Origin: Escherichia phage vB_EcoP-101101UKE1
DNA length: 44,450 bases
Sequence record: MZ234012.1
Strand: one strand, 5' to 3'
Below, piece by piece: positions 988 through 41,580 of the stretch. Within the stretch, counting starts at the first letter, position 1. Each line of letters starts with the position of its first letter. The notes under the pieces were generated by a model. It was given only the letters and a program-made list of their open reading frames with translations. It was not told the origin of the DNA and ran no database searches. Made by a program: the position numbers and the translations under genes.

Positions 988-3615
988 ATGCAAGACCTAC
1001 ACGCTATTCAACTTCAACTTGAAGAAGAAATGTTTAACGGTGGTATCCGTCGCTTTGAAGCGGACCAACAACGCCAGATTGCATCCGGTAATGAATCAGA
1101 CACGGCATGGAATCGCCGCTTATTGTCCGAGTTAATCGCGCCAATGGCTGAAGGTATTCAGGCTTATAAGGAAGAGTACGAAGGCAAGCGCGGTCGTGCA
1201 CCACGTGCATTGGCTTTCATTAACTGCGTAGAAAATGAAGTGGCAGCGTATATCACGATGAAGATCGTAATGGATATGCTTAACACTGATGTAACCTTGC
1301 AAGCTATCGCTATGAATGTAGCTGACCGCATCGAAGACCAAGTGCGCTTCAGTAAACTAGAAGGCCATGCAGCTAAATATTTTGAGAAGGTCAAGAAGTC
1401 ACTTAAGGCAAGTAAGACTAAATCATATCGCCATGCGCACAACGTAGCGGTCGTGGCTGAGAAGTCAGTAGCTGACCGTGACGCTGATTTCTCTCGCTGG
1501 GAAGCGTGGCCTAAAGATACCTTGCTACAAATTGGGATGACCTTGCTTGAAATCTTAGAGAATAGCGTATTCTTCAACGGGCAACCTGTCTTCCTCCGCA
1601 CCTTGCGCACTAATGGCGGCAAACATGGTGTTTACTACCTACAGACTAGTGAACACGTAGGTGAGTGGATAACTGCATTTAAAGAACATGTAGCGCAACT
1701 TAGTCCAGCCTATGCACCTTGCGTTATTCCTCCGCGTCCGTGGGTATCACCCTTTAACGGTGGGTTTCATACTGAGAAAGTAGCAAGCCGTATTCGTCTG
1801 GTAAAAGGCAATCGTGAGCACGTCCGCAAGCTGACCAAAAAGCAAATGCCAGCGGTTTACAAGGCTGTTAACGCTTTGCAGGCTACTAAGTGGCAGGTTA
1901 ATAAAGAGGTTTTACAGGTTGTGGAGGACGTTATACGTCTAGACCTCGGCTATGGTGTACCTTCCTTTAAACCACTCATCGACCGTGAGAACAAGCCAGC
2001 TAATCCGGTGCCGTTAGAGTTCCAGCACCTGCGAGGCCGTGAACTGAAAGAAATGCTTACGCCGGAACAATGGCAAGCCTTTATCAACTGGAAAGGTGAA
2101 TGTACTAAGCTGTACACCGCTGAAACTAAGCGCGGAAGCAAATCGGCGGCAACCGTTCGCATGGTTGGTCAGGCCCGTAAATATAGCCAGTTCGACGCAA
2201 TCTACTTCGTGTATGCACTGGACAGCCGCAGCCGTGTATACGCGCAATCTAGCACACTCTCACCGCAATCAAATGACTTGGGCAAGGCCTTGCTCCGTTT
2301 TACCGAAGGGCAGCGTCTTGATAGCGCTGAGGCGCTTAAGTGGTTTTTGGTGAACGGGGCGAATAACTGGGGTTGGGATAAGAAAACTTTTGACGTGCGC
2401 ACCGCTAACGTGCTGGATGGCGAATTTCAAGACATGTGCCGCGACATTGCAGCGGATCCGCTGACCTTCACTCAATGGGTAAATGCCGACTCCCCTTACG
2501 GCTTCCTTGCATGGTGCTTTGAATATGCGCGTTATCTGGATGCACTGGATGGAGGCACGCAAGACCAATTCATGACGCACCTCCCAGTCCATCAAGATGG
2601 TAGTTGTTCTGGTATCCAGCACTACAGTGCTATGCTACGCGATGCAGTAGGTGCGAAAGCAGTAAACCTTAAGCCCTCTGACTCTCCTCAAGATATTTAT
2701 GGTGCCGTTGCGCAGGTAGTAATTCAGAAGAATTATGCATACATGAATGCAGAGGATGCGGAAACCTTCACTTCTGGCAGCGTGACTTTAACAGGTGCGG
2801 AGCTGCGTAGTATGGCTAGTGCGTGGGATATGATAGGAATCACTCGCGGCCTGACCAAAAAGCCCGTAATGACACTACCTTATGGCAGCACACGTCTAAC
2901 CTGCCGTGAGTCAGTGATTGATTATATCGTTGATTTAGAAGAAAAAGAGGCCCAACGGGCTATTGCGGAAGGGCGTACCGCCAATCCTGTACACCCTTTT
3001 GATAATGACCGTAAGGACAGCCTGACACCTAGCGCAGCTTATAACTATATGACAGCTTTAATCTGGCCTTCTATTTCGGAAGTGGTTAAAGCTCCTATAG
3101 TGGCAATGAAAATGATTCGTCAGCTTGCACGTTTCGCAGCTAAAAGGAATGAAGGCTTAGAGTACACCTTGCCTACTGGCTTCATCTTGCAACAAAAGAT
3201 AATGGCGACAGATATGCTCCGCGTATCTACTTGCTTGATGGGAGAAATCAAGATGAGTCTACAGATTGAAACGGACGTAGTGGATGAAACGGCTATGATG
3301 GGCGCTGCTGCCCCTAACTTTGTGCACGGTCATGATGCCAGTCACCTTATCTTAACGGTCTGCGACCTTGTTGATAAAGGGATTACATCTATCGCAGTAA
3401 TTCATGATTCTTTTGGCACTCATGCAGGTCGCACCGCAGACCTACGTGATAGTCTAAGGGCAGAAATGGTGAAGATGTATCAAGGCCGTAACGCTCTGCA
3501 AAGCCTGTTAGATGAGCATGAAGAACGCTGGTTAGTAGACACCGGAATCCAAGTGCCAGAGCAAGGAGAGTTTGACCTTAACGAAATCTTAGTATCTGAC
3601 TATTGCTTCGCATAA
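988..3615 (+). CDS. single-subunit DNA-dependent RNA polymerase (T7/SP6 type), 875 aa
   Basis: RBS aggagt 7 nt upstream. Contains the motif B-like stretch [11 protein letters not shown] and motif C IHDSFGTH. Size matches SP6-type RNAPs (~875 aa). Confidence 0.95.
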
Positions 3616-3622
3616 TATTAAT

Positions 3623-3655
3623 AGGCCATTCCTTCGGGAGTGGCCTTTTCTTTTA
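3623..3655 (+). terminator. rho-independent terminator after the RNAP gene
   Basis: Hairpin aggccattcc-TTCG-ggagtggcct (10-bp stem with one G-U pair, UUCG tetraloop) followed by tttcttttt. Confidence 0.75.
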
Positions 3656-3688
3656 CCTACTACCGGTAACATTTCATTAACATAAAGT

Positions 3689-3704
3689 GTCTCACATGTG
3701 AGAC
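3689..3704. promoter_or_regulatory. conserved 16-bp palindrome GTCTCACATGTGAGAC (copy 1 of 6)
   Basis: Perfect inverted repeat immediately upstream of the phage promoter at 3707. Confidence 0.6.
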
Positions 3705-3706
3705 TT

Positions 3707-3729
3707 ATTTACCGGACACTATAGGATAG
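3707..3729 (+). promoter_or_regulatory. phage RNAP promoter (ATTTACCGGACACTATAGGATAG)
   Basis: Matches the recurrent element ATTTACYGGACACTATAGAAG found about 12 times in the window, which is close to the SP6 promoter ATTTAGGTGACACTATAGAAGAG. Confidence 0.75.
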
Positions 3730-3870
3730 CCGTCGGAGACGGGAAAGAAAGGGAAGATAAAGGATATAAAAGGAAGTAATAGGTATTAAAGGTTATATAG
3801 GTTATCTAGGAATACCTATTACCTTCTCCCTTCCTCTTATTACTACTTAGAGGAAGGGCAGATCTAGGTT

Positions 3871-3886
3871 GTCTCACATGTGAGAC
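3871..3886. promoter_or_regulatory. conserved 16-bp palindrome GTCTCACATGTGAGAC (copy 2 of 6)
   Basis: Perfect inverted repeat immediately upstream of the promoter at 3892. Confidence 0.6.
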
Positions 3887-3891
3887 TTCGT

Positions 3892-3914
3892 ATTTACCGG
3901 ACAGTATAGATAAG
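3892..3914 (+). promoter_or_regulatory. phage RNAP promoter variant (ATTTACCGGACAGTATAGATAAG)
   Basis: Consensus-like element with a C-to-G change in the CACTATA core (CAGTATA), upstream of the gp1.1-like gene. T7 likewise has promoters directly before gene 1.1. Confidence 0.55.
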
Positions 3915-3939
3915 ACTAACTTACTTTGGAGATTTAACC

Positions 3940-4068
3940 ATGCGTAACTTTGAGAAGATGACCCGTAAAGCTAACCGTTTTGACATGGAAGAAGGGCAGA
4001 AGAAAGGCAAGAAGCTGAATAAACCTGTCCGTGACCGTGCATCTAAACGCGCTGCGTGGGAGTTCTAA
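3940..4068 (+). CDS. T7 gp1.1-like small basic protein (42 aa, MRNFEKMTRKANRFDMEEGQKKGKKLNKPVRDRASKRAAWEF)
   Basis: Short ORF below the six-frame track cutoff. N-terminus MRNFEKMT and overall length and basic character match my recollection of T7 gene 1.1, and it sits directly after the RNAP gene as in T7. Confidence 0.6.
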   Translation: MRNFEKMTRKANRFDMEEGQKKGKKLNKPVRDRASKRAAWEF

Positions 4069-4071
4069 GTT

Positions 4072-6060
4072 ATGGCTATTATTCAGAATGTACCGTGTCC
4101 TGCCTGTCAAAAGAATGGACATGATATTACTGGCAACCATCTTATGATATTTGACGACGGAGCAGGATACTGTAACCGTGGTCACTTCCATGATAACGGT
4201 AAACCTTATTACCACAAGCCAGAGGGTGGCATCGAGATAACCGAATTGCCTATTACTGGCAATATCAAATATACACCTTCTCAATTCAAAGAAATGGAGA
4301 AGGAAGGGAAGATAAGCGACCCTAAGCTACGCGCCATCGCTCTTGGTGGTATGCGTATGAAAGACCGTTGGGAGGTCATGAATGAGCAAGAAAGGGCAGA
4401 CCAAGAAGCAGAGTGGAAACTTGATGTTGAATGGTTCCTCACGCTTAAGCGTAAGAACCTTGTTTCCCGACACATTCGCGGCGACATTTGCGCATTGTAT
4501 GATGTACGTGTTGGGCACGATGAAGAGGGTAGAGTCTCACGGCATTACTATCCGCGCTTCGAAAAAGGTGAGCTAGTAGGCGCTAAATGTCGCACATTAC
4601 CTAAAGATTTTAAGTTTGGTCATTTAGGTAAACTCTTTGGTATGCAAGATCTTTTCGGTATGAATACTTTGTCTCACGTGTTAGACAAGGGAAGACGAAA
4701 GGATTGCTTGCTTATTGTGGGTGGGGAACTGGATGCACTAGCAGCGCAGCAGATGCTCCTTGATTCTGCCAAGGGCACTAAGTGGGAAGGCCAGCCATAC
4801 CATGTATGGTCTGTCAACAAAGGCGAGTCTTGCCTTGAAGAGATAGTGCAGAACCGTGAGCATATCGCCCAATTCAAGAAGATTATATGGGGTTTTGATG
4901 GAGATGAGGTAGGGCAGAAGCAGAATCAGCAAGCGGCTCGCCTGTTTCCTGGCAAATCCTATATCCTTGAATACCCCTCTGGTTGCAAAGATGCTAACAA
5001 GGCATTGATGGCTGGCAAGGCTAAAGAATTTGTAGATGCATGGTTTAATGCCAAGTCATCTGATGAAGTCTTTGGTAGCCAGATTAAATCTATCGCATCT
5101 CAAAGGGATAAGCTCAAGGCTGCACGTCCAGAGCAAGGACTATCATGGCCTTGGCCTAAGCTGAACAAGGTAACGCTAGGTATTCGTAAGAATCAGCTTA
5201 TCATTGTAGGTGCAGGGTCTGGTGTAGGTAAGACTGAGTTCCTTCGTGAAGTAGTTAAGCACCTCATTGAAGAACACGGTGAATCTGTAGGCATCATTTC
5301 TACAGAAGACCCGATGGTCAAGGTGTCCCGTGCTTTTATCGGCAAGTGGATTGATAAGCGTATTGAGTTGCCGCCAACCAACGACCCGAAAGAAGATGGA
5401 TACCGTGAGGTGTTCGACTACACCGAGGAAGAAGCTAACGCCGCCATTGATTATGTAGCTGATACAGGTAAGCTGTTTGTAGCTGACCTAGAGGGTGACT
5501 ATTCGATGGAAAAGGTAGAGCAAACTTGCCTAGAGTTTGAGGCTATGGGTATTTCTAATATCATCATTGATAACTTAACGGGGATTAAATTAGATGAGCG
5601 TGCTTTTGGTGGGAAGGTTGGTGCACTTGATGAATGCGTCAAGCGGATTGGTACTATCAAAGACCGACACCCGGTTACTATATTCCTTGTATCACACCTT
5701 ACACGTCCTCCGGCAAACCGTACCCAACACGAAGAAGGTGGCGAAGTTATCCTTTCTGACTTCCGAGGCTCAGGCGCTATCGGATTCTGGGCATCTTACG
5801 CCTTGGGGATTGAGCGTAATACAAGAGCTGAAACGCTTGACGAAAGGACTACCACGTACATCTCATGTGTCAAAGACCGCGACCAAGGTATCTGGACTGG
5901 AACCAAGGTCATGCTTAAGGGTGACATTCAAACCGGACGTTTAATGGAACCACAAGCCCGTACTAAGTCATTTGACACCGGCGAAGCAAGGCAACAAGAA
6001 GTACCGGATTTACCGGACACTATAGAAGAGACTAACTTCGATGAAGAAAGTGAGTTCTGA
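4072..6060 (+). CDS. DNA primase/helicase (T7 gp4-like), 662 aa
   Basis: N-terminal zinc ribbon CPACQKNGHD...CNRGH, helicase Walker A GAGSGVGKT, and an acidic C-terminal tail ending DEESEF. Confidence 0.92.
   Translation: MAIIQNVPCPACQKNGHDITGNHLMIFDDGAGYCNRGHFHDNGKPYYHKPEGGIEITELPITGNIKYTPSQFKEMEKEGKISDPKLRAIALGGMRMKDRWEVMNEQERADQEAEWKLDVEWFLTLKRKNLVSRHIRGDICALYDVRVGHDEEGRVSRHYYPRFEKGELVGAKCRTLPKDFKFGHLGKLFGMQDLFGMNTLSHVLDKGRRKDCLLIVGGELDALAAQQMLLDSAKGTKWEGQPYHVWSVNKGESCLEEIVQNREHIAQFKKIIWGFDGDEVGQKQNQQAARLFPGKSYILEYPSGCKDANKALMAGKAKEFVDAWFNAKSSDEVFGSQIKSIASQRDKLKAARPEQGLSWPWPKLNKVTLGIRKNQLIIVGAGSGVGKTEFLREVVKHLIEEHGESVGIISTEDPMVKVSRAFIGKWIDKRIELPPTNDPKEDGYREVFDYTEEEANAAIDYVADTGKLFVADLEGDYSMEKVEQTCLEFEAMGISNIIIDNLTGIKLDERAFGGKVGALDECVKRIGTIKDRHPVTIFLVSHLTRPPANRTQHEEGGEVILSDFRGSGAIGFWASYALGIERNTRAETLDERTTTYISCVKDRDQGIWTGTKVMLKGDIQTGRLMEPQARTKSFDTGEARQQEVPDLPDTIEETNFDEESEF
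6008..6030 (+). promoter_or_regulatory. phage RNAP promoter (ATTTACCGGACACTATAGAAGAG)
   Basis: Exact consensus, embedded in the 3' end of the primase/helicase coding sequence. Confidence 0.75.
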
Positions 6061-12557: not shown

Positions 12558-12580
12558 ATTTACTGGACACTATAGAAGAG
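12558..12580 (+). promoter_or_regulatory. phage RNAP promoter (ATTTACTGGACACTATAGAAGAG)
   Basis: Exact consensus. Confidence 0.8.
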
Positions 12581-12629: not shown

Positions 12630-13010
12630 ATGTTCAAGATTGAAACTATCGTAAACCGTGTTGTTAAAGGTGCTGCTCTGGTATCCGTTGAGTCTTTCAT
12701 TATCGTCGATGAAGCTGATCAACTGGTAGCTGGTACTAAGGCTTACGATACCCGTGAAGAAGCTCAGGCTAAGATTGACAGCATGGGTAACTTCGCTGCT
12801 GGTCTGGAGTTCGCTCGCGCTTGCTTCCCTGAGCAGGCTGACAAAGCTCAGATTGGTAAGGCTAATATCGTAGCTGAATATCTGGATTGGATTGCTGCTG
12901 GTAAGCCGGTGAAAGAAGTTAAGTCTGCTGAAGAAGCTGAATCTCAGGCAGTAGAAGAAGAAGTAGCTGCACCGGTAGATGCTCCGGTAAGCGAAGAGGA
13001 AGAGTTTTAA
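12630..13010 (+). CDS. abundant acidic protein (126 aa) with C-terminal acidic tail ending SEEEEF
   Basis: Strong RBS aaaggag, own promoter, codon usage like the capsid gene, and a terminator directly downstream. Confidence 0.5.
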   Translation: MFKIETIVNRVVKGAALVSVESFIIVDEADQLVAGTKAYDTREEAQAKIDSMGNFAAGLEFARACFPEQADKAQIGKANIVAEYLDWIAAGKPVKEVKSAEEAESQAVEEEVAAPVDAPVSEEEEF

Positions 13011-13012
13011 TT

Positions 13013-13047
13013 GATGCCCTGTCTGCCTTAGTGTAGGCAGGGTCTTT
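13013..13047 (+). terminator. putative rho-independent terminator
   Basis: Imperfect hairpin gccctgtctgcc...ggcagggtc followed by ttttg. Confidence 0.45.
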
Positions 13048-13074: not shown

Positions 13075-13380
13075 ATGCCGACTATTAAATCTCGTTTAGT
13101 AGCAGACTATGTGTATGGTCGTGACTTAAAGTTAATGCAAGATTACTTTAAAGTAATCATCCTGCTGGATGGAGAAGTGTTTCACACTAAAACATTCACC
13201 CTTCCTGAATTGTTTGATTTAGGTTATTGGGGTTATACATATCAGGCCATAGCAGACAAGGTGCTACTCAGTGTATTAGAGGAGTGGCCTACATGCGACC
13301 AAACTTCGACTTCGGAGCTACAGTATCGGAAGACAATAACCTGTTGCTGTGGCCAACTGAAGGTAATAGAATCGCTTTAA
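13075..13380 (+). CDS. hypothetical protein (101 aa), 3' end overlapping the exonuclease gene
   Basis: RBS ggaga before ATG 13075. Overlaps the exonuclease gene out of frame. Confidence 0.3.
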   Translation: MPTIKSRLVADYVYGRDLKLMQDYFKVIILLDGEVFHTKTFTLPELFDLGYWGYTYQAIADKVLLSVLEEWPTCDQTSTSELQYRKTITCCCGQLKVIESL

Positions 13381-14321
13381 TAGATGCTGACATGTTACCC
13401 TACATCGTAGGTTATACAATCAGTGACATGACTTATGTACGAGCCACAACTCGTGTTAAGTCAGGACAAGTCCCATCAATCAAAGATACACCTGAGTGTA
13501 AGCAAGCGTGTGACCGTGTGAACTCCTTGCTCAACTCTTGGGTGTATGCAGCAGAGTGTGATGCAGCTAAGTTATTCATGACGAAATCAGAAGCTAACTT
13601 CCGTGTTCGCCTAGCCTTCACCAAGCCTTATAAGGGTCAACGTAAGACCGAGAAGCCTCCGTTCTTCTATGAATTGCGAGAGCATCTCTTAGAGGTTCAT
13701 GGTGCAATCTTGGCAGATGGAGAAGAGGCTGATGACCTCATGAGCATTGCACAATGGGACAGCCACCGCCGCTTCCAGCAAGATACAGGTAACGAGTTCC
13801 CTATCGGTAGTCCAGAGCATAAAGCATTCTCTGATACTTGCATCGTTTCCTTAGATAAGGATTTGATGATTGTTCCCGGTTGGCATCTTCAGCCGGGTCA
13901 AGAGAAGAAATGGGTAGAGCCTATGGGTTGGCTTGAGCTACGCCGTAAGGCTAATGGTCAGGTTAAAGACCTTAAAGGTGCTGGCCTCATGTTTCATTAT
14001 GCACAGATGATTATCGGTGATGATATTGATAACTATGCTGGCATACCTGGACGTGGTGCTAAATACGCCTATGATCTTCTCAAAGATTGTAAGACAGAGA
14101 AAGAGTTGTACATGGCAGTGCTTGGTGCTTACAAGGCTAAGTTCGGACATGGACAAGTTAAGATTAAGAATTACCGAGGTGGTTATCGTATCGGCAAGTC
14201 TTTTGACCTGATGCTCGAATGTGGTCGCCTAGCTCACATGGCAAGATTCAAAGGTGATATATGGCGAGCCGATAAGAACCCAATCTTGTGGGGAGATGAT
14301 GCGAAATGGTTAGCAAATTAA
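13293..14321 (+). CDS. 5'-3' exonuclease (T7 gp6-like, FEN family)
   Basis: Motifs IVSLDKDL and GDDIDNYAGIPGRG resemble T7 gp6 CDKDF and GDITDGYSGIAGWG. Start at ATG 13293 with RBS gaggagtgg; the track ORF opens at 13227. Confidence 0.85.
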   Translation: MRPNFDFGATVSEDNNLLLWPTEGNRIALIDADMLPYIVGYTISDMTYVRATTRVKSGQVPSIKDTPECKQACDRVNSLLNSWVYAAECDAAKLFMTKSEANFRVRLAFTKPYKGQRKTEKPPFFYELREHLLEVHGAILADGEEADDLMSIAQWDSHRRFQQDTGNEFPIGSPEHKAFSDTCIVSLDKDLMIVPGWHLQPGQEKKWVEPMGWLELRRKANGQVKDLKGAGLMFHYAQMIIGDDIDNYAGIPGRGAKYAYDLLKDCKTEKELYMAVLGAYKAKFGHGQVKIKNYRGGYRIGKSFDLMLECGRLAHMARFKGDIWRADKNPILWGDDAKWLAN

Positions 14322-14716
14322 AATCATCGGAGGTAGCAGCTTATAAGAGGGAATTGCTAGAGAAGCAAGGGTGGAAGTGCCCACTATGTGGCGGCAGTCT
14401 CAAGGCTGTTACTCCTATAAACCGTGTACTTGACCATGACCATGAGACAGGATTCTGCCGTGCTGTTGTATGCCGAGGCTGCAATGGTGCAGAAGGAAAG
14501 ATTAAGGGTGTTATCTCTGGTTACGGTAAGGCTGGTAACAACCGTTACTTCCAGCTTCAATGGTTAGAGCGACTATATGAATACTGGAAGTTACATAGTA
14601 CGCCTCAGACAGATAAGTTATATCACAAACATCAAACGGAGGCAGAGAAGCGCGAGGCTAAGAACCGTAAGGCACGCCTTGCTTATGCAAGAAAGAAGGA
14701 GGTTAAAGTTGGGTAA
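14306..14716 (+). CDS. endonuclease VII-like Holliday junction resolvase
   Basis: Zinc-binding signature CPLCGG...LDHDHETGFCRAVVCRGCNGAEGK, typical of the T4 endonuclease VII family. Confidence 0.8.
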   Translation: MVSKLKSSEVAAYKRELLEKQGWKCPLCGGSLKAVTPINRVLDHDHETGFCRAVVCRGCNGAEGKIKGVISGYGKAGNNRYFQLQWLERLYEYWKLHSTPQTDKLYHKHQTEAEKREAKNRKARLAYARKKEVKVG

Positions 14717-15716
14717 GCTTCGCAGCTTGTACAAAGACTCCGAGGTACTTGATGCAATCGAGCAAGCTACCGACGAGAAAGGTAATGTTAATTATAATGA
14801 GATGGCACGTGTATTATCGTGTCACCCTGTGGGTAAGAAGATTACCCGCCAGTTGGCTCGATACTGGCATGGTCAATTCAAGAAGACCAAGAAGAAAGGT
14901 GATTATTACCAGACCCTTCTGCAAGAAGATAAGCGTATCAAAGAAGAGCGTAAGCTCAGGACTCCTGACCGCTACGAGGATTTGGCTATTGTACCATTGC
15001 CTGACTCGCCTCATCGAAGTGTACTGGTAATCCCTGATACTCATGCACCTTATGAGCATCCAGATACCTTAGAGTTCCTTGCAGCAGTCGCGGCACGTTA
15101 CCGTCCAGATACAGTGGTTCACTTAGGAGATGAGGCAGATAAACACGCCCTCTCCTTCCATGACTCTGACCCTAATCTGGATAGTGCTGGCATGGAGCTA
15201 GAGAAGGCTCGTGTCTTCATGCACAAGTTGCACAAGATGTTCCCTGTGATGCGCCTGTGTCATTCTAATCACGGCTCTATGCACTTCCGTAAGGCAAGCG
15301 CCAAGGGTATTCCAGTGCAATATCTTCGCACCTACCGTGAAGTCTTTTTCCCAAATGGAGGTGGCGACCAGTGGGATTGGCAGCATACACATGTTCTTGA
15401 GTTGCCGAATGGTGAACAAGTGGCATTCAAGCATCAACCTGCTGGCTCTGTCCTAGCAGATGCAGCGCATGAGCGTATGAACCTTGTGTGTGGTCACTTG
15501 CACGGTAAGATGTCTGTGGAGTACGCACGTAATACACATGAACAGTATTGGGCTGTGCAAGGTGGCTGCTTAATTGATGAGTCATCCCGTGCATTTGCCT
15601 ATGGTCGTGAGTCTAAATACAAGCCAGCATTAGGTTGTGTGGTCATTCTGGAGGGTGTGCCTCACATTGTCCCGATGCAAACCAATAGCGACAACCGTTG
15701 GATTGGCAAGATTTAG
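14709..15716 (+). CDS. calcineurin-like metallophosphoesterase with ~100-aa N-terminal extension
   Basis: Phosphoesterase motifs IPDTHAPYEHPD (DxH), HLGDEAD (GD), HSNHG (NH) and CGHLHG (GHxH). Probable TTG start at 14709 after RBS aaggagg; the track ORF opens at 14577. Confidence 0.75.
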   Translation: MGKLRSLYKDSEVLDAIEQATDEKGNVNYNEMARVLSCHPVGKKITRQLARYWHGQFKKTKKKGDYYQTLLQEDKRIKEERKLRTPDRYEDLAIVPLPDSPHRSVLVIPDTHAPYEHPDTLEFLAAVAARYRPDTVVHLGDEADKHALSFHDSDPNLDSAGMELEKARVFMHKLHKMFPVMRLCHSNHGSMHFRKASAKGIPVQYLRTYREVFFPNGGGDQWDWQHTHVLELPNGEQVAFKHQPAGSVLADAAHERMNLVCGHLHGKMSVEYARNTHEQYWAVQGGCLIDESSRAFAYGRESKYKPALGCVVILEGVPHIVPMQTNSDNRWIGKI

Positions 15717-15734
15717 TTGACACTATAGAACAAA
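15711..15734 (+). promoter_or_regulatory. phage RNAP promoter (ATTTAGTTGACACTATAGAACAAA)
   Basis: One mismatch from the SP6 promoter core ATTTAGGTGACACTATAGAA. Overlaps the phosphoesterase stop codon. Confidence 0.75.
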
Positions 15735-16321: not shown

Positions 16322-16495
16322 ATGGAAGGTAAACTGTATAGAGGGTGCTTCGGTAACTTATATAAAGTAAGCCCTCGCGGTTTTGTATTGACCTCTGATG
16401 ATGAAGGTGCAATGTGGCACCTAAGTGCATATGGTTCTAACTTAGCATACTTTAAAGAGGCAATAGTCAAAGGTGTGATGAAGGAGGTGAAATGA
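16322..16495 (+). CDS. hypothetical small protein (57 aa)
   Basis: RBS gagga. Its stop overlaps the ligase start (ATGA). Confidence 0.3.
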   Translation: MEGKLYRGCFGNLYKVSPRGFVLTSDDEGAMWHLSAYGSNLAYFKEAIVKGVMKEVK

Positions 16496-17439
16496 ACATC
16501 TTCCAATTCCTAGGTCTTCCAGAAGACCACCGCAATCATCCATTCATGCTGGTGAAGCATCGCGGTGAAGTTCCTGAGAAGAAACTTACTTTTCCATGTT
16601 ATGCACAGGTGAAACGAGATGGAATATTCAGTGCTGTTGTGGTGCGCAATGATGGTGCTGTTGCCATCTTTGGTCGTACTGGTAAGAAGCTCGCAAATGT
16701 TGAATCCTTGGAAAAGACGTTTAGTGTATTTCCTGTCGGGTTGTATCTTGGTGAGTTGCAATCTATGGCTGTTGATGTTTATCTTGAAGCTCTGTCAGGA
16801 GTGGTAAACCCTAATCGTACAGAGCCACTTGACTTCATAGGCCAGCAGATTAAAGACAACCTGTATATCGACTTCTTCGATATGTTAACTATTAAGGCAT
16901 TCCATGATGGATTCACTGATGTTTCTTATCTCAAACGTTACGATGCTTTACATCGTCGTATCGGCACTCATCTTAGCGGGTGCAACGCTATCCTTCCTAT
17001 CACTCCTTGCCATAATGAGCGAGAAGTTGAAGCGTTTGCGCAAGAGCAAATAGATGCAGGACGTGAGGGTGCTGTATTCAAACTGGACTGCGATTATGAA
17101 GCAGGACACAAAGGTTATCGTCAGACTAAAGAAGTCCGTAAGGTAACTTATGACCTTACTTGTATTGGCTTTGAAGAAGGTAAAGGTAAATACAAAGGTA
17201 AGGTAGCTAACCTCATTTTCAAGTGGAAAGGGGGCAAGACAATCAAAGCTATGCTCGGTAAAGGGTGGACTCATGCAGATGCAGAACAGATGTTCCACGA
17301 TATTAAACATGGCGGACGGTTGAATGTCATTGGTAAAATCTTTGAAGTCAAAGGTCTTCAGGATTCAAGCAAGGGCAACATTCGTCTGCCCAAAGCGGGA
17401 GAATTAAGACATGACAAAGATGAACCAGATTTCTTTTGA
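16492..17439 (+). CDS. ATP-dependent DNA ligase
   Basis: Adenylation motif QVKRDGIF (KxDG), size 315 aa, and position after the exonuclease/endonuclease block. Confidence 0.85.
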   Translation: MNIFQFLGLPEDHRNHPFMLVKHRGEVPEKKLTFPCYAQVKRDGIFSAVVVRNDGAVAIFGRTGKKLANVESLEKTFSVFPVGLYLGELQSMAVDVYLEALSGVVNPNRTEPLDFIGQQIKDNLYIDFFDMLTIKAFHDGFTDVSYLKRYDALHRRIGTHLSGCNAILPITPCHNEREVEAFAQEQIDAGREGAVFKLDCDYEAGHKGYRQTKEVRKVTYDLTCIGFEEGKGKYKGKVANLIFKWKGGKTIKAMLGKGWTHADAEQMFHDIKHGGRLNVIGKIFEVKGLQDSSKGNIRLPKAGELRHDKDEPDFF

Positions 17440-33786: not shown

Positions 33787-33787
33787 T

Positions 33788-34231
33788 ATGCATAGATGGT
33801 GTGAATCTCAAGGTTATACCATCTTACCTTCTGGTGTCATCCTTTCAAAGGGTGGCACCCCTCTCAAACCATTCAAGGCGGGTAGGGGTTATTTAGCAGT
33901 TAAAATTAAAAATAAAGAAGGTAGATGGCGTAATGTCTATGTTCATCAATTAGTGGCTTATAAGTATTTACCTAAAACTAATAATGAAGTAAACCACAAA
34001 GACGGCGATAAGCACAACAATGATGTTAGCAACTTGGAGTGGGTAACAAGAAGCGAGAATAACTATTTAAAATGCAATGGAAATGATAGGAGTACCTTAA
34101 ATAGCTATTTAGCAAGATTAAAAGATTGCTTCTTGCAAGGTAAGGGTGTAGCAGAAACCGCTAGACTTACTGGTAAAAGTGAACCAAGAGTTTCTTCTCT
34201 CTTTAAGGAGTGGCGAAATGGCAAAGGCTAG
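33788..34231 (+). CDS. HNH homing endonuclease
   Basis: HNH motif VNHKDGDKHNNDVSNLEWVTRSEN. AT-rich compared with its neighbours. Start ATG 33788 with RBS aagaggag; the track ORF opens at 33641. Confidence 0.8.
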   Translation: MHRWCESQGYTILPSGVILSKGGTPLKPFKAGRGYLAVKIKNKEGRWRNVYVHQLVAYKYLPKTNNEVNHKDGDKHNNDVSNLEWVTRSENNYLKCNGNDRSTLNSYLARLKDCFLQGKGVAETARLTGKSEPRVSSLFKEWRNGKG

Positions 34232-36116
34232 AGAATCACAGGCAGAGGCATTAAAGCGGTGGGAAAACCTTAAAGAACTACAAGACACTTTTAAATATAC
34301 AGCGGAAGGTTTGCTTCTCTTTGCAGATACAGTTATTCATAACTTAATTGCAGGCAACCCTCATCTGATTCGTATGCAGGCTGATATCTTGAAGTTCCTA
34401 TTTTACGGACACAAGTACCGCCTCATCGAAGCGCCTCGTGGTATCGCTAAGACAACACTATCAGCAATCTATACGGTATTCCGTATTATTCATGAACCGC
34501 ATAAGCGTATCATGGTTGTGTCCCAAAACGCCAAGCGAGCAGAGGAAATCGCAGGTTGGGTAGTTAAAATCTTCCGTGGCTTAGACTTTCTTGAGTTTAT
34601 GCTGCCGGATATCTACGCTGGGGACCGTGCATCCGTTAAGGCGTTTGAGATTCATTACACCCTACGTGGTAGTGATAAGTCTCCTTCTGTATCCTGTTAC
34701 TCAATCGAAGCAGGTATGCAGGGTGCTCGTGCTGATATTATTCTAGCGGATGACGTAGAGTCGATGCAGAATGCTCGTACGGCAGCGGGCCGTGCCTTGC
34801 TTGAGGAACTGACTAAGGAGTTTGAATCTATCAACCAGTTTGGGGATATCATTTACCTTGGTACACCTCAGAACGTAAACTCTATCTACAACAACCTACC
34901 TGCTCGTGGTTACTCTGTTCGTATCTGGACTGCGCGTTACCCTTCAGTAGAGCAAGAGCAATGTTATGGCGACTTCCTTGCACCTATGATTGTTCAAGAT
35001 ATGAAGGACAACCCAGCACTTCGCTCAGGGTACGGGTTGGATGGTAATAGTGGTGCACCTTGTGCCCCTGAAATGTATGATGATGAAGTCCTGATTGAGA
35101 AGGAAATCTCTCAGGGTGCTGCTAAGTTCCAGCTTCAGTTCATGCTTAACACTCGCATGATGGATGCTGACAGATACCCATTACGCCTGAACAATCTAAT
35201 CTTCACCTCGTTTGGTACAGAGGAAGTCCCTGTGATGCCTACGTGGAGTAATGATTCCATAAACATCATTGGTGATGCACCTAAGTATGGTAACAAGCCT
35301 ACGGATTTCATGTACAGACCTGTAGCTCGCCCATATGAATGGGGCGCTGTCTCCCGCAAGATTATGTATATTGACCCTGCGGGTGGTGGTAAGAACGGAG
35401 ATGAGACGGGTGTAGCCATCGTATTCCTGCACGGCACATTCATTTATGTGTATCAGTGCTTTGGTGTACCTGGCGGATACCGAGAGTCGTCCCTGAATCG
35501 CATTGTGCAAGCCGCAAAGCAGGCGGGTGTTAAAGAGGTATTCATTGAGAAGAACTTTGGTCATGGCGCGTTTGAGGCGGTAATTAAGCCGTACTTTGAA
35601 CGAGAGTGGCCTGTAACTCTGGAAGAGGATTACGCCACCGGACAGAAAGAGTTGCGTATCATTGAGACGCTGGAGCCGCTCATGGCAGCACATAGGCTTA
35701 TCTTCAATGCAGAGATGGTGAAGTCAGACTTTGAGTCGGTACAGCACTATCCGCTTGAACTACGCATGTCCTACAGTCTTTTCAATCAAATGTCGAACAT
35801 AACGATTGAGAAGAACAGCCTCCGGCACGATGACCGCCTAGACGCCCTGTATGGCGCTATACGGCAATTAACTTCTCAGATAGACTATGACGAGGTTACA
35901 CGGATTAATCGCCTCAGAGCGCAGGAGATGCGCGATTACATCCATGCTATGAATACACCTCATTTACGCAGGGCAATGCTATATGGAGATTACGGTACTG
36001 AGCGAAGAGTGACCAACACTTCCGTAGCGATGCAGCAGCGAGTTTACGGGCAGAACTACCGAAATAAATCGGCAAGCAGAAATACACTTTCTGCAAGGAT
36101 TTCAAGGACTTATTAA
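34218..36116 (+). CDS. terminase large subunit (T7 gp19-like)
   Basis: Walker A-like PRGIAKTT and Walker B-like ILADDVE. Probable start ATG 34218 (RBS aaggag); the track ORF opens at 34179. Confidence 0.9.
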   Translation: MAKARESQAEALKRWENLKELQDTFKYTAEGLLLFADTVIHNLIAGNPHLIRMQADILKFLFYGHKYRLIEAPRGIAKTTLSAIYTVFRIIHEPHKRIMVVSQNAKRAEEIAGWVVKIFRGLDFLEFMLPDIYAGDRASVKAFEIHYTLRGSDKSPSVSCYSIEAGMQGARADIILADDVESMQNARTAAGRALLEELTKEFESINQFGDIIYLGTPQNVNSIYNNLPARGYSVRIWTARYPSVEQEQCYGDFLAPMIVQDMKDNPALRSGYGLDGNSGAPCAPEMYDDEVLIEKEISQGAAKFQLQFMLNTRMMDADRYPLRLNNLIFTSFGTEEVPVMPTWSNDSINIIGDAPKYGNKPTDFMYRPVARPYEWGAVSRKIMYIDPAGGGKNGDETGVAIVFLHGTFIYVYQCFGVPGGYRESSLNRIVQAAKQAGVKEVFIEKNFGHGAFEAVIKPYFEREWPVTLEEDYATGQKELRIIETLEPLMAAHRLIFNAEMVKSDFESVQHYPLELRMSYSLFNQMSNITIEKNSLRHDDRLDALYGAIRQLTSQIDYDEVTRINRLRAQEMRDYIHAMNTPHLRRAMLYGDYGTERRVTNTSVAMQQRVYGQNYRNKSASRNTLSARISRTY

Positions 36117-36136
36117 TTACTGGACACTATAGAAGG
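36115..36136 (+). promoter_or_regulatory. phage RNAP promoter (AATTACTGGACACTATAGAAGG)
   Basis: Consensus match, overlapping the terminase stop codon. Confidence 0.75.
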
Positions 36137-36272
36137 AAGGCCCAGATAATAAGAGAAAATAATAGGTAATATATAGGTTAACCTAGGTTATATAGGTATG
36201 CCTTAGTATGGGTGTACTCTGTACACCCTATTCCTTACTACCTTACTATATTTACATAATAGGAGAGAGACA

Positions 36273-39867: not shown

Positions 39868-41580
39868 ATGCTTCAAAGATTAAGTGCTTACTTGGTGAAG
39901 TACAAGAGTAAACTAACAGGTACTATTGAGCGCCTGCTATCTGATAAACTATCGGATACTATAGATGTTGCGGATTTTGGAGTTAATCCCTCTTCTAATG
40001 ACAACAGGCAAGCCCTTCAAGCTGCATTTAATGCGGTCAGATTGCTAGGCGGTGGTACTGTATCAGTCACTAAGGCTGGCGAATATAAACTAAGTGGTAC
40101 TGTTGAGATATTTGCTAATACACACTTCAAGGTTGCTAAAGGTGTAACATTTGTACGTGACTACGAAACAGGAGATACGCTATTCAGATTATCACAAGGG
40201 CAAGCTAGTAATGTAACAGTCAGTGGAGGTGTCTATGAAGGCAATGGTCACACTAAAGGAGATACACCTTTTGTAGTATTTGCATCTACTAGTAATAATG
40301 ATTTGAAGTTTGAAGGCATAATAGTTAACAATGTAGTGGACTACCACGCCATAGATTTAGCAGATTGGAACAACGTAGTTATTCGTGATTGTAAATTCCT
40401 AGGGTTTAAGAATACAGGCAGTCGTAACTTCTCAGAGGCTATACAGTTAGACCCAGGACTTATTACAGTAGGTCGCTATGTGCAGTCTAGTGGTTTACTG
40501 GTAGAGAATTGCTATGCTGGCCCAAACCTTGATTCTGGATTTGGCGGGTATGGTGCTCTAGTAGGAAATCATGCATCAGCTTATGGTGTTCAAGATAACA
40601 ACATTAGAATCCTAAATTGCACTACAGATGGTGCGCTCTTTGCAGGTGTACGTGTATTTAACTGGAAAAACTGGATAGTACGTGGTTGCACATTTAGAAA
40701 TTCTAATGCAAGAGGTGTTCATGTTACACCTGTCTCCTCTCAAACTAAACCGCAAGGAACTCGACAAGGTAGTGTTGTAGATTGTACTTTTGATGGCGTA
40801 AGAACACCAGTGCTAATTGCTGCACCATCTTGGCCTTTTACCGATATTAGTGACATTTGGCATGACCATATTGAAATTTCTAATAATACTATGATCCTCA
40901 CAGAGGATGTATCCTATGGTGTAGATGCAAGGTGGTGTAAGAATTTAATTGTAAAGGGTAATACAGGCTCTGGTGGCTTAGGGTTAATCGGTTTACGCTT
41001 TGGGACAAAATACCACATAGAAGGTAATACTTGGGAAAACGGAAGAGGTAGTGGGATTTGGTTAGGTGAGTCTGATGCTACTACATTCATTGGTACTGGA
41101 TTATCGGGCGAAGGTATACTTAGTCGTAATATCCTCTCTAAATTAGGGCAATATGGTATTCATGTAAACTGCAAGGTTGGCGGTCTAGTGATTAAGGCTA
41201 ATAATATGAAGGAAGTATCTACAGCTGAAGCAGGTAGGCACTTCATTAGCATAGACACAGGAGCTAACAACATCCTAGTAGAAGGTAATATTGGAGTAGA
41301 TGGAGAAAGCCCTAACAAGCCAAGCCTTGGTATTCGTGTTACTTCTTCTTGTTCCAATATTAAACTCATTGGCAATGATTGCTATGGTACACAGGCGCCT
41401 CAGAATAACCAAGGAGTCGGTTCTAGTACGGTGATTGTTTATGGACTAAATGGCGATCCTACAACTTTAGGCGTAGGTGCACCTGTAGGCTCTTTAGCAA
41501 CTGATATCAATGGGTCTGGTGGTAGTACATTGTACGTTAAAGAATCTGGTACATCTGCTCAAGGTTGGGTTGCAAAGTAG
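39868..41580 (+). CDS. tailspike 2: pectate-lyase-like right-handed beta-helix protein
   Basis: RBS aaaggagg. DVADFGVNPSSNDNRQALQAAFNA is typical of pectate-lyase-superfamily tailspikes, and Gly/Asn/Val-rich repeats follow. Confidence 0.75.
   Translation: MLQRLSAYLVKYKSKLTGTIERLLSDKLSDTIDVADFGVNPSSNDNRQALQAAFNAVRLLGGGTVSVTKAGEYKLSGTVEIFANTHFKVAKGVTFVRDYETGDTLFRLSQGQASNVTVSGGVYEGNGHTKGDTPFVVFASTSNNDLKFEGIIVNNVVDYHAIDLADWNNVVIRDCKFLGFKNTGSRNFSEAIQLDPGLITVGRYVQSSGLLVENCYAGPNLDSGFGGYGALVGNHASAYGVQDNNIRILNCTTDGALFAGVRVFNWKNWIVRGCTFRNSNARGVHVTPVSSQTKPQGTRQGSVVDCTFDGVRTPVLIAAPSWPFTDISDIWHDHIEISNNTMILTEDVSYGVDARWCKNLIVKGNTGSGGLGLIGLRFGTKYHIEGNTWENGRGSGIWLGESDATTFIGTGLSGEGILSRNILSKLGQYGIHVNCKVGGLVIKANNMKEVSTAEAGRHFISIDTGANNILVEGNIGVDGESPNKPSLGIRVTSSCSNIKLIGNDCYGTQAPQNNQGVGSSTVIVYGLNGDPTTLGVGAPVGSLATDINGSGGSTLYVKESGTSAQGWVAK

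Follow-up and report, generated by a model that had tools for sequence, protein, structure and literature searches.

The window analysed here is the complete genome, 44,450 nucleotides (nt), of Escherichia phage vB_EcoP-101101UKE1 (MZ234012.1), a Vectrevirus (Autographiviridae, Molineuxvirinae) of the K1E/K1-5/SP6-like group. The gene under study is the open reading frame (ORF) at 14709–15716 on its plus strand, whose translation gives a metallophosphoesterase (MPE) of 335 amino acids (aa) followed by a stop codon (Table 1). The TTG start at 14709, regarded as probable in the first-pass annotation of this DNA, which was made from the letters alone, held up well: AGGAGG lies 6 nt upstream; the phages VEc3, K1E (gp22) and KMB47 display matching annotated coordinates, the same TTG start and the same upstream sequence; and in the homologue search with the protein, which retrieved 2804 homologues, those of 332–340 aa begin at the residue equivalent to the TTG-encoded one. 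A longer ORF from the in-frame ATG at 14577 (379 aa, 14577–15716) was rejected, since it would overlap the endonuclease VII gene by 140 nt and is unsupported by any homologue N-terminus or annotation. Starting at the TTG, the MPE gene overlaps the end of the endonuclease VII gene by its final codons, the stop codon (14714–14716) included, which suggests that translation of the two genes is coupled.

The PHROG 221 profile ('metallo-phosphoesterase') matches the protein over its full length (residues 1–334, E 3.5e-105), and the match to Pfam Metallophos (PF00149) is borderline (21.6 bits against a cut-off of 21.5, E 3.4e-4). With this end-to-end profile match, the invariant motifs PYxHxD, GDExDxHAxSxH and SNHGS..R, and K1E gp22 at the equivalent position with an equal start, it is near certain that the gene is the orthologue of K1E gp22 and SP6 gp23 and a member of PHROG 221; no difference in architecture or genomic position was observed from PHROG 221/VOG1606 as represented by K1E gp22, SP6 gp23, KP34 gp23 and PhiM1 gp27. 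The gene is already catalogued and annotated across hundreds of phage genomes and is not a new entity, and the finding is the correct reading of a catalogued gene for an ordinary-looking enzyme, not a discovery. In BFVD the K1E gene is represented by two proteins, A0A2I4Q1Z7 (104 aa) and A0A2I4Q1Y4 (237 aa), with the break falling precisely where the helix-turn-helix (HTH)/linker region meets the catalytic domain; AM084415, the original record of K1E, holds an intact 335-aa gp22, and the split may reflect a frameshift in a laboratory stock, a sequencing error or a gene-calling artefact.

The catalytic domain exhibits all five motifs of the binuclear MPE superfamily in their order (DxH, GD, (G)NH(D/E), H and GHxH), and the alpha/beta sandwich of this superfamily was recovered in the predicted model and by fold search. 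All peptides quoted in the first-pass annotation are present, namely IPDTHAPYEHPD (D110, H112), HLGDEAD (G140, D141), HSNHG (N187, H188), CGHLHG (H263, H265) and KITRQLARYWHGQFKKTKKKGDYY, and its assignment to the calcineurin-type MPEs is borne out by the PHROG 221 match, the fold and the invariance of the motifs in alignment A1 (55 homologues, identity down to 47%). Invariant in A1 are the seven metal ligands D110, H112, D141, N187, H242, H263 and H265, the motif III histidine H188, and P114 and H117 behind motif I, with D119 conserved in at least 90% of the sequences; a DPxLxSAGxEL loop after motif II (DPNLDSAG..EL in this protein) is likewise conserved. Motif III reads SNHG where GNH(D/E) is usual, and R194 behind it is invariant. 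Stand-alone relatives likewise show no variation in the core catalytic residues, and the counterpart of H242 in one relative (H144 of P0155) is invariant in alignment A3. Because the catalytic set is fully conserved, the MPE is probably catalytically active. Residues 141–160 display a low predicted local distance difference test score (pLDDT, 62–66) in the full model, which suggests that the region around motif II is a flexible loop.

The N-terminal extension of about 100 aa, described in the first-pass annotation as basic, is indeed basic, with an isoelectric point (pI) of 9.5 against 6.5 for the catalytic part, but it is not a mere tail. Modelled alone, it gives a pLDDT of 91, with helices at residues 10–20, 29–37 and 47–57, and the fold neighbours of the model are Myb/homeodomain-like, GcrA and small-terminase proteins; a folded three-helix HTH-like domain is thus predicted, followed by a structured linker. 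Residues 1–103 are conserved across the Autographiviridae orthologues, with L36, L49, Y52 and W53 invariant and K61, G64, Y67, N74, R81 and R84 of the linker conserved in A1. The linker has a pLDDT of 86–95 in the full-protein model, whose predicted template modelling score is 0.84, and these values suggest that it packs against the catalytic domain. Relatives either consist of the catalytic module by itself (about 235 aa) or carry it behind N-terminal extensions of other kinds. Of 45 long members, 8 are hit by Pfam HTH_23, and HTH_SB, HTH_29, HTH_38, HTH_psq and HTH_8 were also matched at N-termini; a classic N-terminal HTH ('..SWRKIAE.LG..KSTVSDYLRK..') was observed about 60 residues before motif I in 23 of 36 loci from IMG/VR. 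This comparative evidence from the family is considered decisive for reading the extension as a version of the HTH: judged from the sequences, the family is mainly built as HTH-linker-MPE, and the extension in this protein appears as a divergent, longer version of it.

Table 1. Features of the MPE gene, its product and its surroundings (positions in the window unless a locus is given; residue numbers refer to the 335-aa protein).
Feature	Positions	Strand	Basis
HTH-metallophosphoesterase coding sequence (K1E gp22, SP6 gp23, PHROG 221)	14709..15716	+	ORF, PHROG match, annotation in KMB47, VEc3, K1E
Shine-Dalgarno sequence AGGAGG	14697..14702	+	Identical context in VEc3 and K1E
Three-helix HTH-like domain, aa 1-58, pI 9.25	14709..14882	+	
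Basic structured linker, aa 59-103, pI 9.4	14883..15017	+	Alignment A1, full model
Binuclear MPE catalytic domain, aa 104-335, pI 6.5, no capping domain	15018..15713	+	
Motif I and family-specific extension, D110-T-H112-A-P114-Y-E-H117-P-D119	15036..15065	+	Alignment A1
Motif II and extension, G140-D141-E142-A-D144-K-H146-A-L-S149-F-H151	15126..15161	+	Invariant in A1
Motif III variant, S186-N187-H188-G189-S190 ... R194	15264..15290	+	Invariant in A1
Motif IV histidine, H242	15432..15434	+	Invariant in A1
Motif V, G262-H263-L-H265	15492..15503	+	Invariant in A1
5'-3' exonuclease, T7 gp6-like	13293..14321	+	PHROG 107, E 1.9e-73; 'exonuclease' in KMB47 and VEc3
Endonuclease VII (junction resolvase)	14306..14716	+	Pfam Endonuclease_7, E 1.5e-12; PHROG 423, E 2e-47
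SP6/K1E-type promoter core GGACACTATAGAA, nearest copy upstream of MPE	12564..12577	+	Pattern scan
Exact promoter core copy directly after MPE stop	15717..15730	+	Zero mismatches
Acb1 homologues	L008:7730-8233, L013:7730-8227, L016:7730-8233		IMG/VR contigs of 45 and ~183 kb

Comparison with structures returned a broad set of MPEs, with the highest fold-search scores for the PolD DP1 exonuclease (13.5), YfcE (13.5) and MJ0936 (13.4), followed by LpxH (11.5), Mre11/SbcD (10–11.4), ApaH-like proteins (10.4), PP5 (10.1), Rv0805 (9.7) and CthPnkp (9.5). Sequence identity to these structural neighbours ranges from 6 to 21% and no subfamily is outstanding; neither a search of the Protein Data Bank (PDB) with the protein sequence nor a search of it with a 55-sequence profile gave a meaningful match. 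The lack of an outstanding fold neighbour and the empty PDB searches place the protein outside every characterised subfamily, and it is a bona fide MPE of none of them. The comparison with Mre11/SbcD, ApaH and the lambda phosphatase proposed in the first-pass annotation thus confirmed the MPE fold and singled out no subfamily; it had also allowed for orthology to a characterised housekeeping phosphatase, and no characterised orthologue was found.

A parallel in design is the Pseudomonas putida MPE, PdeM, a small Mn-dependent single-stranded DNA endonuclease whose repair operon also holds genes for an exonuclease, the helicase Lhr and a ligase (PMC7826289). Like PdeM (PDB 6NVO), the protein is a small, monomer-type binuclear MPE with no capping domain, its gene adjoins an exonuclease gene with an ATP-dependent ligase nearby, and in both the motif III histidine is able to act as a general acid. 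The PdeM family TIGR04123 is also the best NCBIfam match, although far below the cut-off (21.9 bits against 150, E 9e-5, 33 residues aligned). The spacing of the ligands differs (His124/His146/His158 in PdeM, H242/H263/H265 in this protein), and PdeM has an Lhr operon partner and no HTH, whereas no Lhr gene occurs in this genome; with the score below cut-off, an Asp at motif II +3 and no Lhr, the protein does not belong to TIGR04123. Nor does it belong to Mre11/SbcD, as the capping domain, the partner gene and the motif II histidine are all lacking: GDEADKH and SNHG stand in place of GDxxH and GNHD. The histidine of GDxxH is also conserved in Mre11. Identity to PolD DP1, YfcE and MJ0936 is 11–14%; the OB-fold (oligonucleotide/oligosaccharide-binding) and polymerase-binding parts of DP1 are absent from this protein, and YfcE and MJ0936 (160–180 aa) are devoid of the loops PYxHxD and HAxSxHxxDPxLxSAG and of an HTH. 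One family member weakly matches PHROG 7339 ('DNA repair exonuclease').

The lambda phosphatase (NinI) and the bacterial Pnkp module are binuclear MPEs that share the Asp at motif II +3. The protein does not fall within the PPP/lambda type: PDTHAP stands in place of GDxHG, GDEADKH in place of GDxxDRG, with no Arg, and SNHG in place of GNHE, in agreement with the distinction drawn in the first-pass annotation. It likewise does not fall with Acb1 (2H fold) or Apyc1 (metallo-beta-lactamase (MBL) fold), having a calcineurin-like fold and no Pfam Acb1 or Lactamase_B domain. T5 A1 is another phage-specific protein of MPE type with a DNA-binding module at its side, which in T5 is a separate protein (A2) and in the protein of the window is fused. 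This metallophosphatase-like protein, putatively a nuclease itself, is needed together with the DNA-binding A2 for the breakdown of host DNA; it is a pre-early product confined to Demerecviridae (bioRxiv 10.64898/2026.04.02.716235), 556 aa long with a large N-terminal region. T5 A1 (L096 1706–3376) shares the unusual motif III ESNH....R and the motif II pattern D..D..S..H, but alignment of the family profile with T5 A1 by hhalign was not significant (probability 0.3%, E 0.19). A relationship to T5 A1 and A2 was therefore not adopted, profile comparisons being not significant, and is kept as a motif-level lead; a very distant link between PHROG 221 and T5 A1 may exist.

Upstream of the MPE gene, the stop codon of the exonuclease gene overlaps the start of the endonuclease VII gene, and directly downstream lies a DUF3310 (T7 gp1.7-like) nucleotide kinase gene. 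The first-pass annotation had placed the MPE between the endonuclease and the ligase; the endonuclease VII neighbour and the DNA-metabolism module stand, but the kinase gene adjoins the MPE, and the ligase (16492–17439) lies two genes beyond it. A pattern scan of the window for the promoter core (T/G)GACACTATAGAA, with up to 3 mismatches allowed, gave 18 matches against 5.5 expected by chance, all but one on the plus strand, spanning 3713–44093 (for example at 6014, 6705, 10955, 11418, 12564, 15717, 20920, 33584, 36121 and 37788), and the sole exact match of the TTGACACTATAGAA variant is the site directly behind the MPE stop codon. The copy at 12564 probably drives a unit with the exonuclease, endonuclease VII and MPE genes, these three probably forming the end of one middle-gene transcription unit, and the predicted copy at 15717 would start the unit of the kinase and the ligase. 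Between the 12564 promoter and the exonuclease gene sits a strong terminator-like hairpin (13016–13043, an 11 bp stem followed by a T-run), 3' of an acidic 126-aa ORF (12630–13010), and it may attenuate transcription into the nuclease operon.

The exonuclease-endonuclease VII-MPE order, with abutting or overlapping stop and start codons, was also observed in Vp670 and Achelous (Colwellvirinae) and in ISAO8 and phiAS7 (Melnykvirinae), so that the unit recurs in three Autographiviridae subfamilies, that of the window included; PhiM1-like phages exhibit an equal order (PMC6115819). In phiAS7 (L100), genes for a HAD_PNKP-type phosphatase (3518–4057, E 1.3e-15, annotated 'polynucleotide kinase') and a P-loop ATPase (4053–4649) come immediately 3' of the MPE gene, with overlapping stop and start codons; next to the MPE, the two resemble an end-healing pair of Pnkp type divided over two genes. 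At the 36 IMG/VR loci, the enriched neighbours are MazG-like proteins, dATP/dGTP pyrophosphohydrolases, ThyX, DUF3310 kinases, NT5C, DUF4406, ribonucleotide reductase, dUTPase and guanylate kinase, with HNH homing endonucleases, endonuclease VII and one exonuclease among the others. In three of these loci, a homologue of the 2H phosphodiesterase Acb1, which acts against the bacterial defence system CBASS (Pfam E about 1e-34), begins at the base right behind the stop codon of the HTH-MPE gene.

From this evidence the MPE is read, with somewhat less than even confidence, as a Mn-dependent, DNA-directed phosphodiesterase or nuclease working with the adjacent nucleases. Among the options left by the first-pass annotation, a nucleic-acid-directed enzyme is favoured because of the context (two DNA nucleases) and the HTH architecture. 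PdeM, which cuts single-stranded DNA, and T5 A1, needed for host DNA breakdown, offer precedents. Two divalent ions, probably Mn2+, would be bound by the seven ligands D110, H112, D141, N187, H242, H263 and H265; a metal-bridged hydroxide would attack the phosphoester, and the general acid that donates a proton to the leaving group would be H188, its orientation probably set by D144. The basic HTH and linker would hold the enzyme on DNA, where it may act as a single-strand or structure-specific endonuclease, or as a 3' exonuclease or end-processing nuclease. Co-produced with the gp6-like 5'-3' exonuclease and endonuclease VII, it could serve in recombination-dependent replication, in the processing of concatemers and branches, or in the breakdown of host DNA to nucleotides, and it may contribute nuclease activity on single strands or 3' ends, which is missing from a resolvase of the endonuclease VII type.

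Several observations weigh against a DNA-directed enzyme. DNA cleavage by the P. putida MPE needs the motif II +3 histidine (His81, GDxxH; PMC7826289), and the invariant Asp144 (GDEADKH) occupies that position in this family. Unlike Mre11/SbcD (T4 gp47, T5 D13), the protein has no capping domain, since in the model the MPE sandwich reaches to the last residue, 335, and no Rad50/SbcC partner, no such SMC-like (structural maintenance of chromosomes) ATPase being present in the annotation of a 99.9%-identical genome. The fold search does not single out nucleases, as the scores of YfcE and MJ0936, diesterases that are generic or act on small molecules, match that of DP1. An HTH fused to an enzyme can also serve autoregulation, as in BirA and NadR, and 13 of the 36 family loci are without an HTH, so that DNA tethering is not obligatory. 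In KP34-like phages the MPE gene no longer sits by endonuclease VII but directly behind the DNA polymerase gene, and the 36 metagenomic loci, with and without HTH, are surrounded mostly by nucleotide-pool enzymes. In the full-text literature searched, the clade appears in annotation-table mentions only, with no assay, knockout or defence phenotype.

The nucleotide-pool enzymes at the 36 loci, together with the gp1.7-like nucleotide kinase as the next gene in the window, point towards a phosphodiesterase or pyrophosphatase that channels host breakdown products into phage DNA synthesis, with 2',3'-cyclic or 3'-nucleotides, dinucleoside polyphosphates, nucleoside and deoxynucleoside diphosphates, or ADP-ribose as candidate substrates and the HTH serving regulation or localisation. 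YfcE, MJ0936 and Ap4A (diadenosine tetraphosphate) hydrolases are among the closest folds, and that nucleotide pools are within the reach of MPEs is shown by a defence-associated calcineurin-like dADP hydrolase (bioRxiv 10.64898/2026.01.15.699771). Such a neighbourhood is not discriminating, however, because phages keep their genes for replication and for nucleotide metabolism in one module; synteny is tightest with two DNA nucleases, and the recurrent N-terminal HTH has no obvious small-molecule role. An enzyme of nucleotide pools is regarded as unlikely.

The phiAS7 arrangement, with the HAD_PNKP phosphatase and P-loop ATPase directly behind the MPE, and the kinase-like and ATP-dependent ligase genes within 2 kb downstream in the window, in Vp670 and in Achelous would suit a 2',3'-cyclic phosphodiesterase/3'-phosphatase of the Pnkp MPE type that readies broken DNA or RNA ends for the ligase, for example after attack by host nucleases. 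The Asp at motif II +3 is as in the lambda-phosphatase/Pnkp clade, and the cyclic phosphodiesterase activities of lambda phosphatase and CthPnkp are a precedent in print (PMC2190708). The Arg of GDxxDR is not conserved, though, and SNHG replaces GNHE; the kinase of the window is of the gp1.7 type, for nucleotides and not polynucleotides; T7-like phages possess kinase and ligase without an MPE gene; and in phiAS7 itself the role would be redundant, because a HAD 3'-phosphatase adjoins the MPE there. End healing is thus held to be distinctly unlikely.

The Acb1 homologue behind the HTH-MPE in one lineage (L008, L013 and L016), together with the occurrence of the family only in phage and phage-like contigs, would be explained if the MPE hydrolysed immune signals such as cyclic di- and trinucleotides, cyclic mononucleotides, cyclic ADP-ribose isomers or cyclic oligoadenylates, as a third fold class beside Acb1 (2H) and Apyc1 (MBL); if true, this would be a major and very widespread new anti-defence family. 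The three MPEs concerned are 81–90% identical, so the adjacency represents a single evolutionary event in one lineage and was downgraded as support. T4 acb1 itself is likewise located among nucleotide-metabolism genes. Unlike variable accessory anti-defence genes, the MPE gene is syntenic and core-like in the DNA-metabolism operon across subfamilies and appears to be co-transcribed with middle (DNA-metabolism), not early, genes, and the HTH would be left unexplained. A PADLOC search, whose library holds defence proteins and not anti-defence proteins, returned no match, and the anti-defence literature searched contains no mention of the family. The option of nucleotide second messengers raised in the first-pass annotation, which gains the Acb1 lineage and draws nothing from PADLOC, is therefore given only a small chance. 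A protein Ser/Thr/Tyr phosphatase of the lambda NinI type, reversing host or phage protein phosphorylation, is very improbable despite the GenBank records that name orthologues 'protein phosphatase 2a-like', as the PPP signature residues are missing (PDTHAP, SNHG, no GDxxDRG Arg), motif II +4 varies among K, N, M, H, G and Q, no PDB phosphatase was matched by sequence, and the HTH and nuclease operon context do not fit.

The distribution of the family was assessed by tblastn with the catalytic domain, which gave 642 phage records annotated "metallo-phosphoesterase", including SP6/K1E-like (Molineuxvirinae), KP34-like (Slopekvirinae), PhiM1-like, Colwellvirinae and Melnykvirinae phages, many podoviruses of Pseudomonas, Aeromonas, Vibrio and Proteus, and the crAss-like Cellulophaga phage phi14:2. 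The catalytic domain is 100% identical in VEc3, G3A1 and Sem2, and KP34 gp23 is annotated as 'similar to SP6 gp23'; among the sampled tblastn rows there was no T7-like (Studiervirinae) phage and no T5. A profile search of 1.8 billion cluster representatives retrieved 3162 relatives, and the IMG/VR matches lie on contigs of 30–45 kb, 80–95 kb and about 183 kb. In one genome each of 185,579 bacterial and archaeal species, an A1-based search with narrow patterns found 10 matching loci, all on contigs of metagenome-assembled genomes, the longer ones being phage-genome-sized; a cellular origin or a prophage reservoir was set aside on these 10 loci only, within the reach of those patterns. The family looks confined to phages, mostly virulent ones.

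Insertions of 300–320 aa were observed exactly at active-site motifs in several orthologues, after GDE of motif II (equivalent to ~15134 in the window) in P0121, P0132 and P0153 (Proteus phage RS8pmA-like, 635 aa) and after DLH of motif I (equivalent to ~15044) in P0159. Their junctions display a Cys at the N-terminal side and ...GN|C at the C-terminal side, and the P0159 insertion holds a LAGLIDADG_3 domain (E 6e-7); Pfam LAGLIDADG_3 was matched in only 2 of the 5 insertion-bearing proteins tested, one of them below cut-off, and a PDB sequence search with the insertion-bearing proteins found nothing. By these features the insertions look intein-like, no more, with two independent insertion sites in the gene family. 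Inteins typically target conserved sites of replication, repair and nucleotide-metabolism enzymes, and the position of the insertions at active-site motifs argues that the enzyme is catalytically important.

Beyond the catalogue entry, the analysis adds the family-wide HTH-MPE architecture, the recurrent unit of exonuclease, endonuclease VII and MPE genes, whose translation is probably coupled, the occurrence of the family in phage and phage-like contigs only, the placement outside every characterised subfamily compared, and the intein-like insertions at the active site. The MPE is conserved in phages used or proposed for therapy, such as K1E/K1-5, SP6, KP34-like Klebsiella phages, and podoviruses of Proteus, Aeromonas, Vibrio and Pectobacterium, and relatives also occur in crAss-like and large marine phages. 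Twenty years after the sequencing of SP6 and K1-5, knowledge of its substrate would fill a gap in the DNA metabolism of Autographiviridae outside the T7 group, and if the enzyme proves to be a nuclease, the metallophosphoesterase superfamily would gain a new clade directed at DNA.

The 2.2-kb region around the MPE gene exhibits 99.9% identity to Escherichia phage vB-Eco-KMB47 and above 95% identity to 34 phage records, and alignment of the whole window with the KMB47 record (OR424385) revealed one genome, circularly permuted by 1908 nt. In that alignment, a 55-nt segment (39971–40025) matches two consecutive KMB47 positions, which suggests a difference in the copy number of a short tandem repeat. 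The KMB47 annotation places a gene for an HNH homing endonuclease between the genes of the small and large terminase subunits (35695–36138 in that record), which corresponds to about 33787–34230 in the window.

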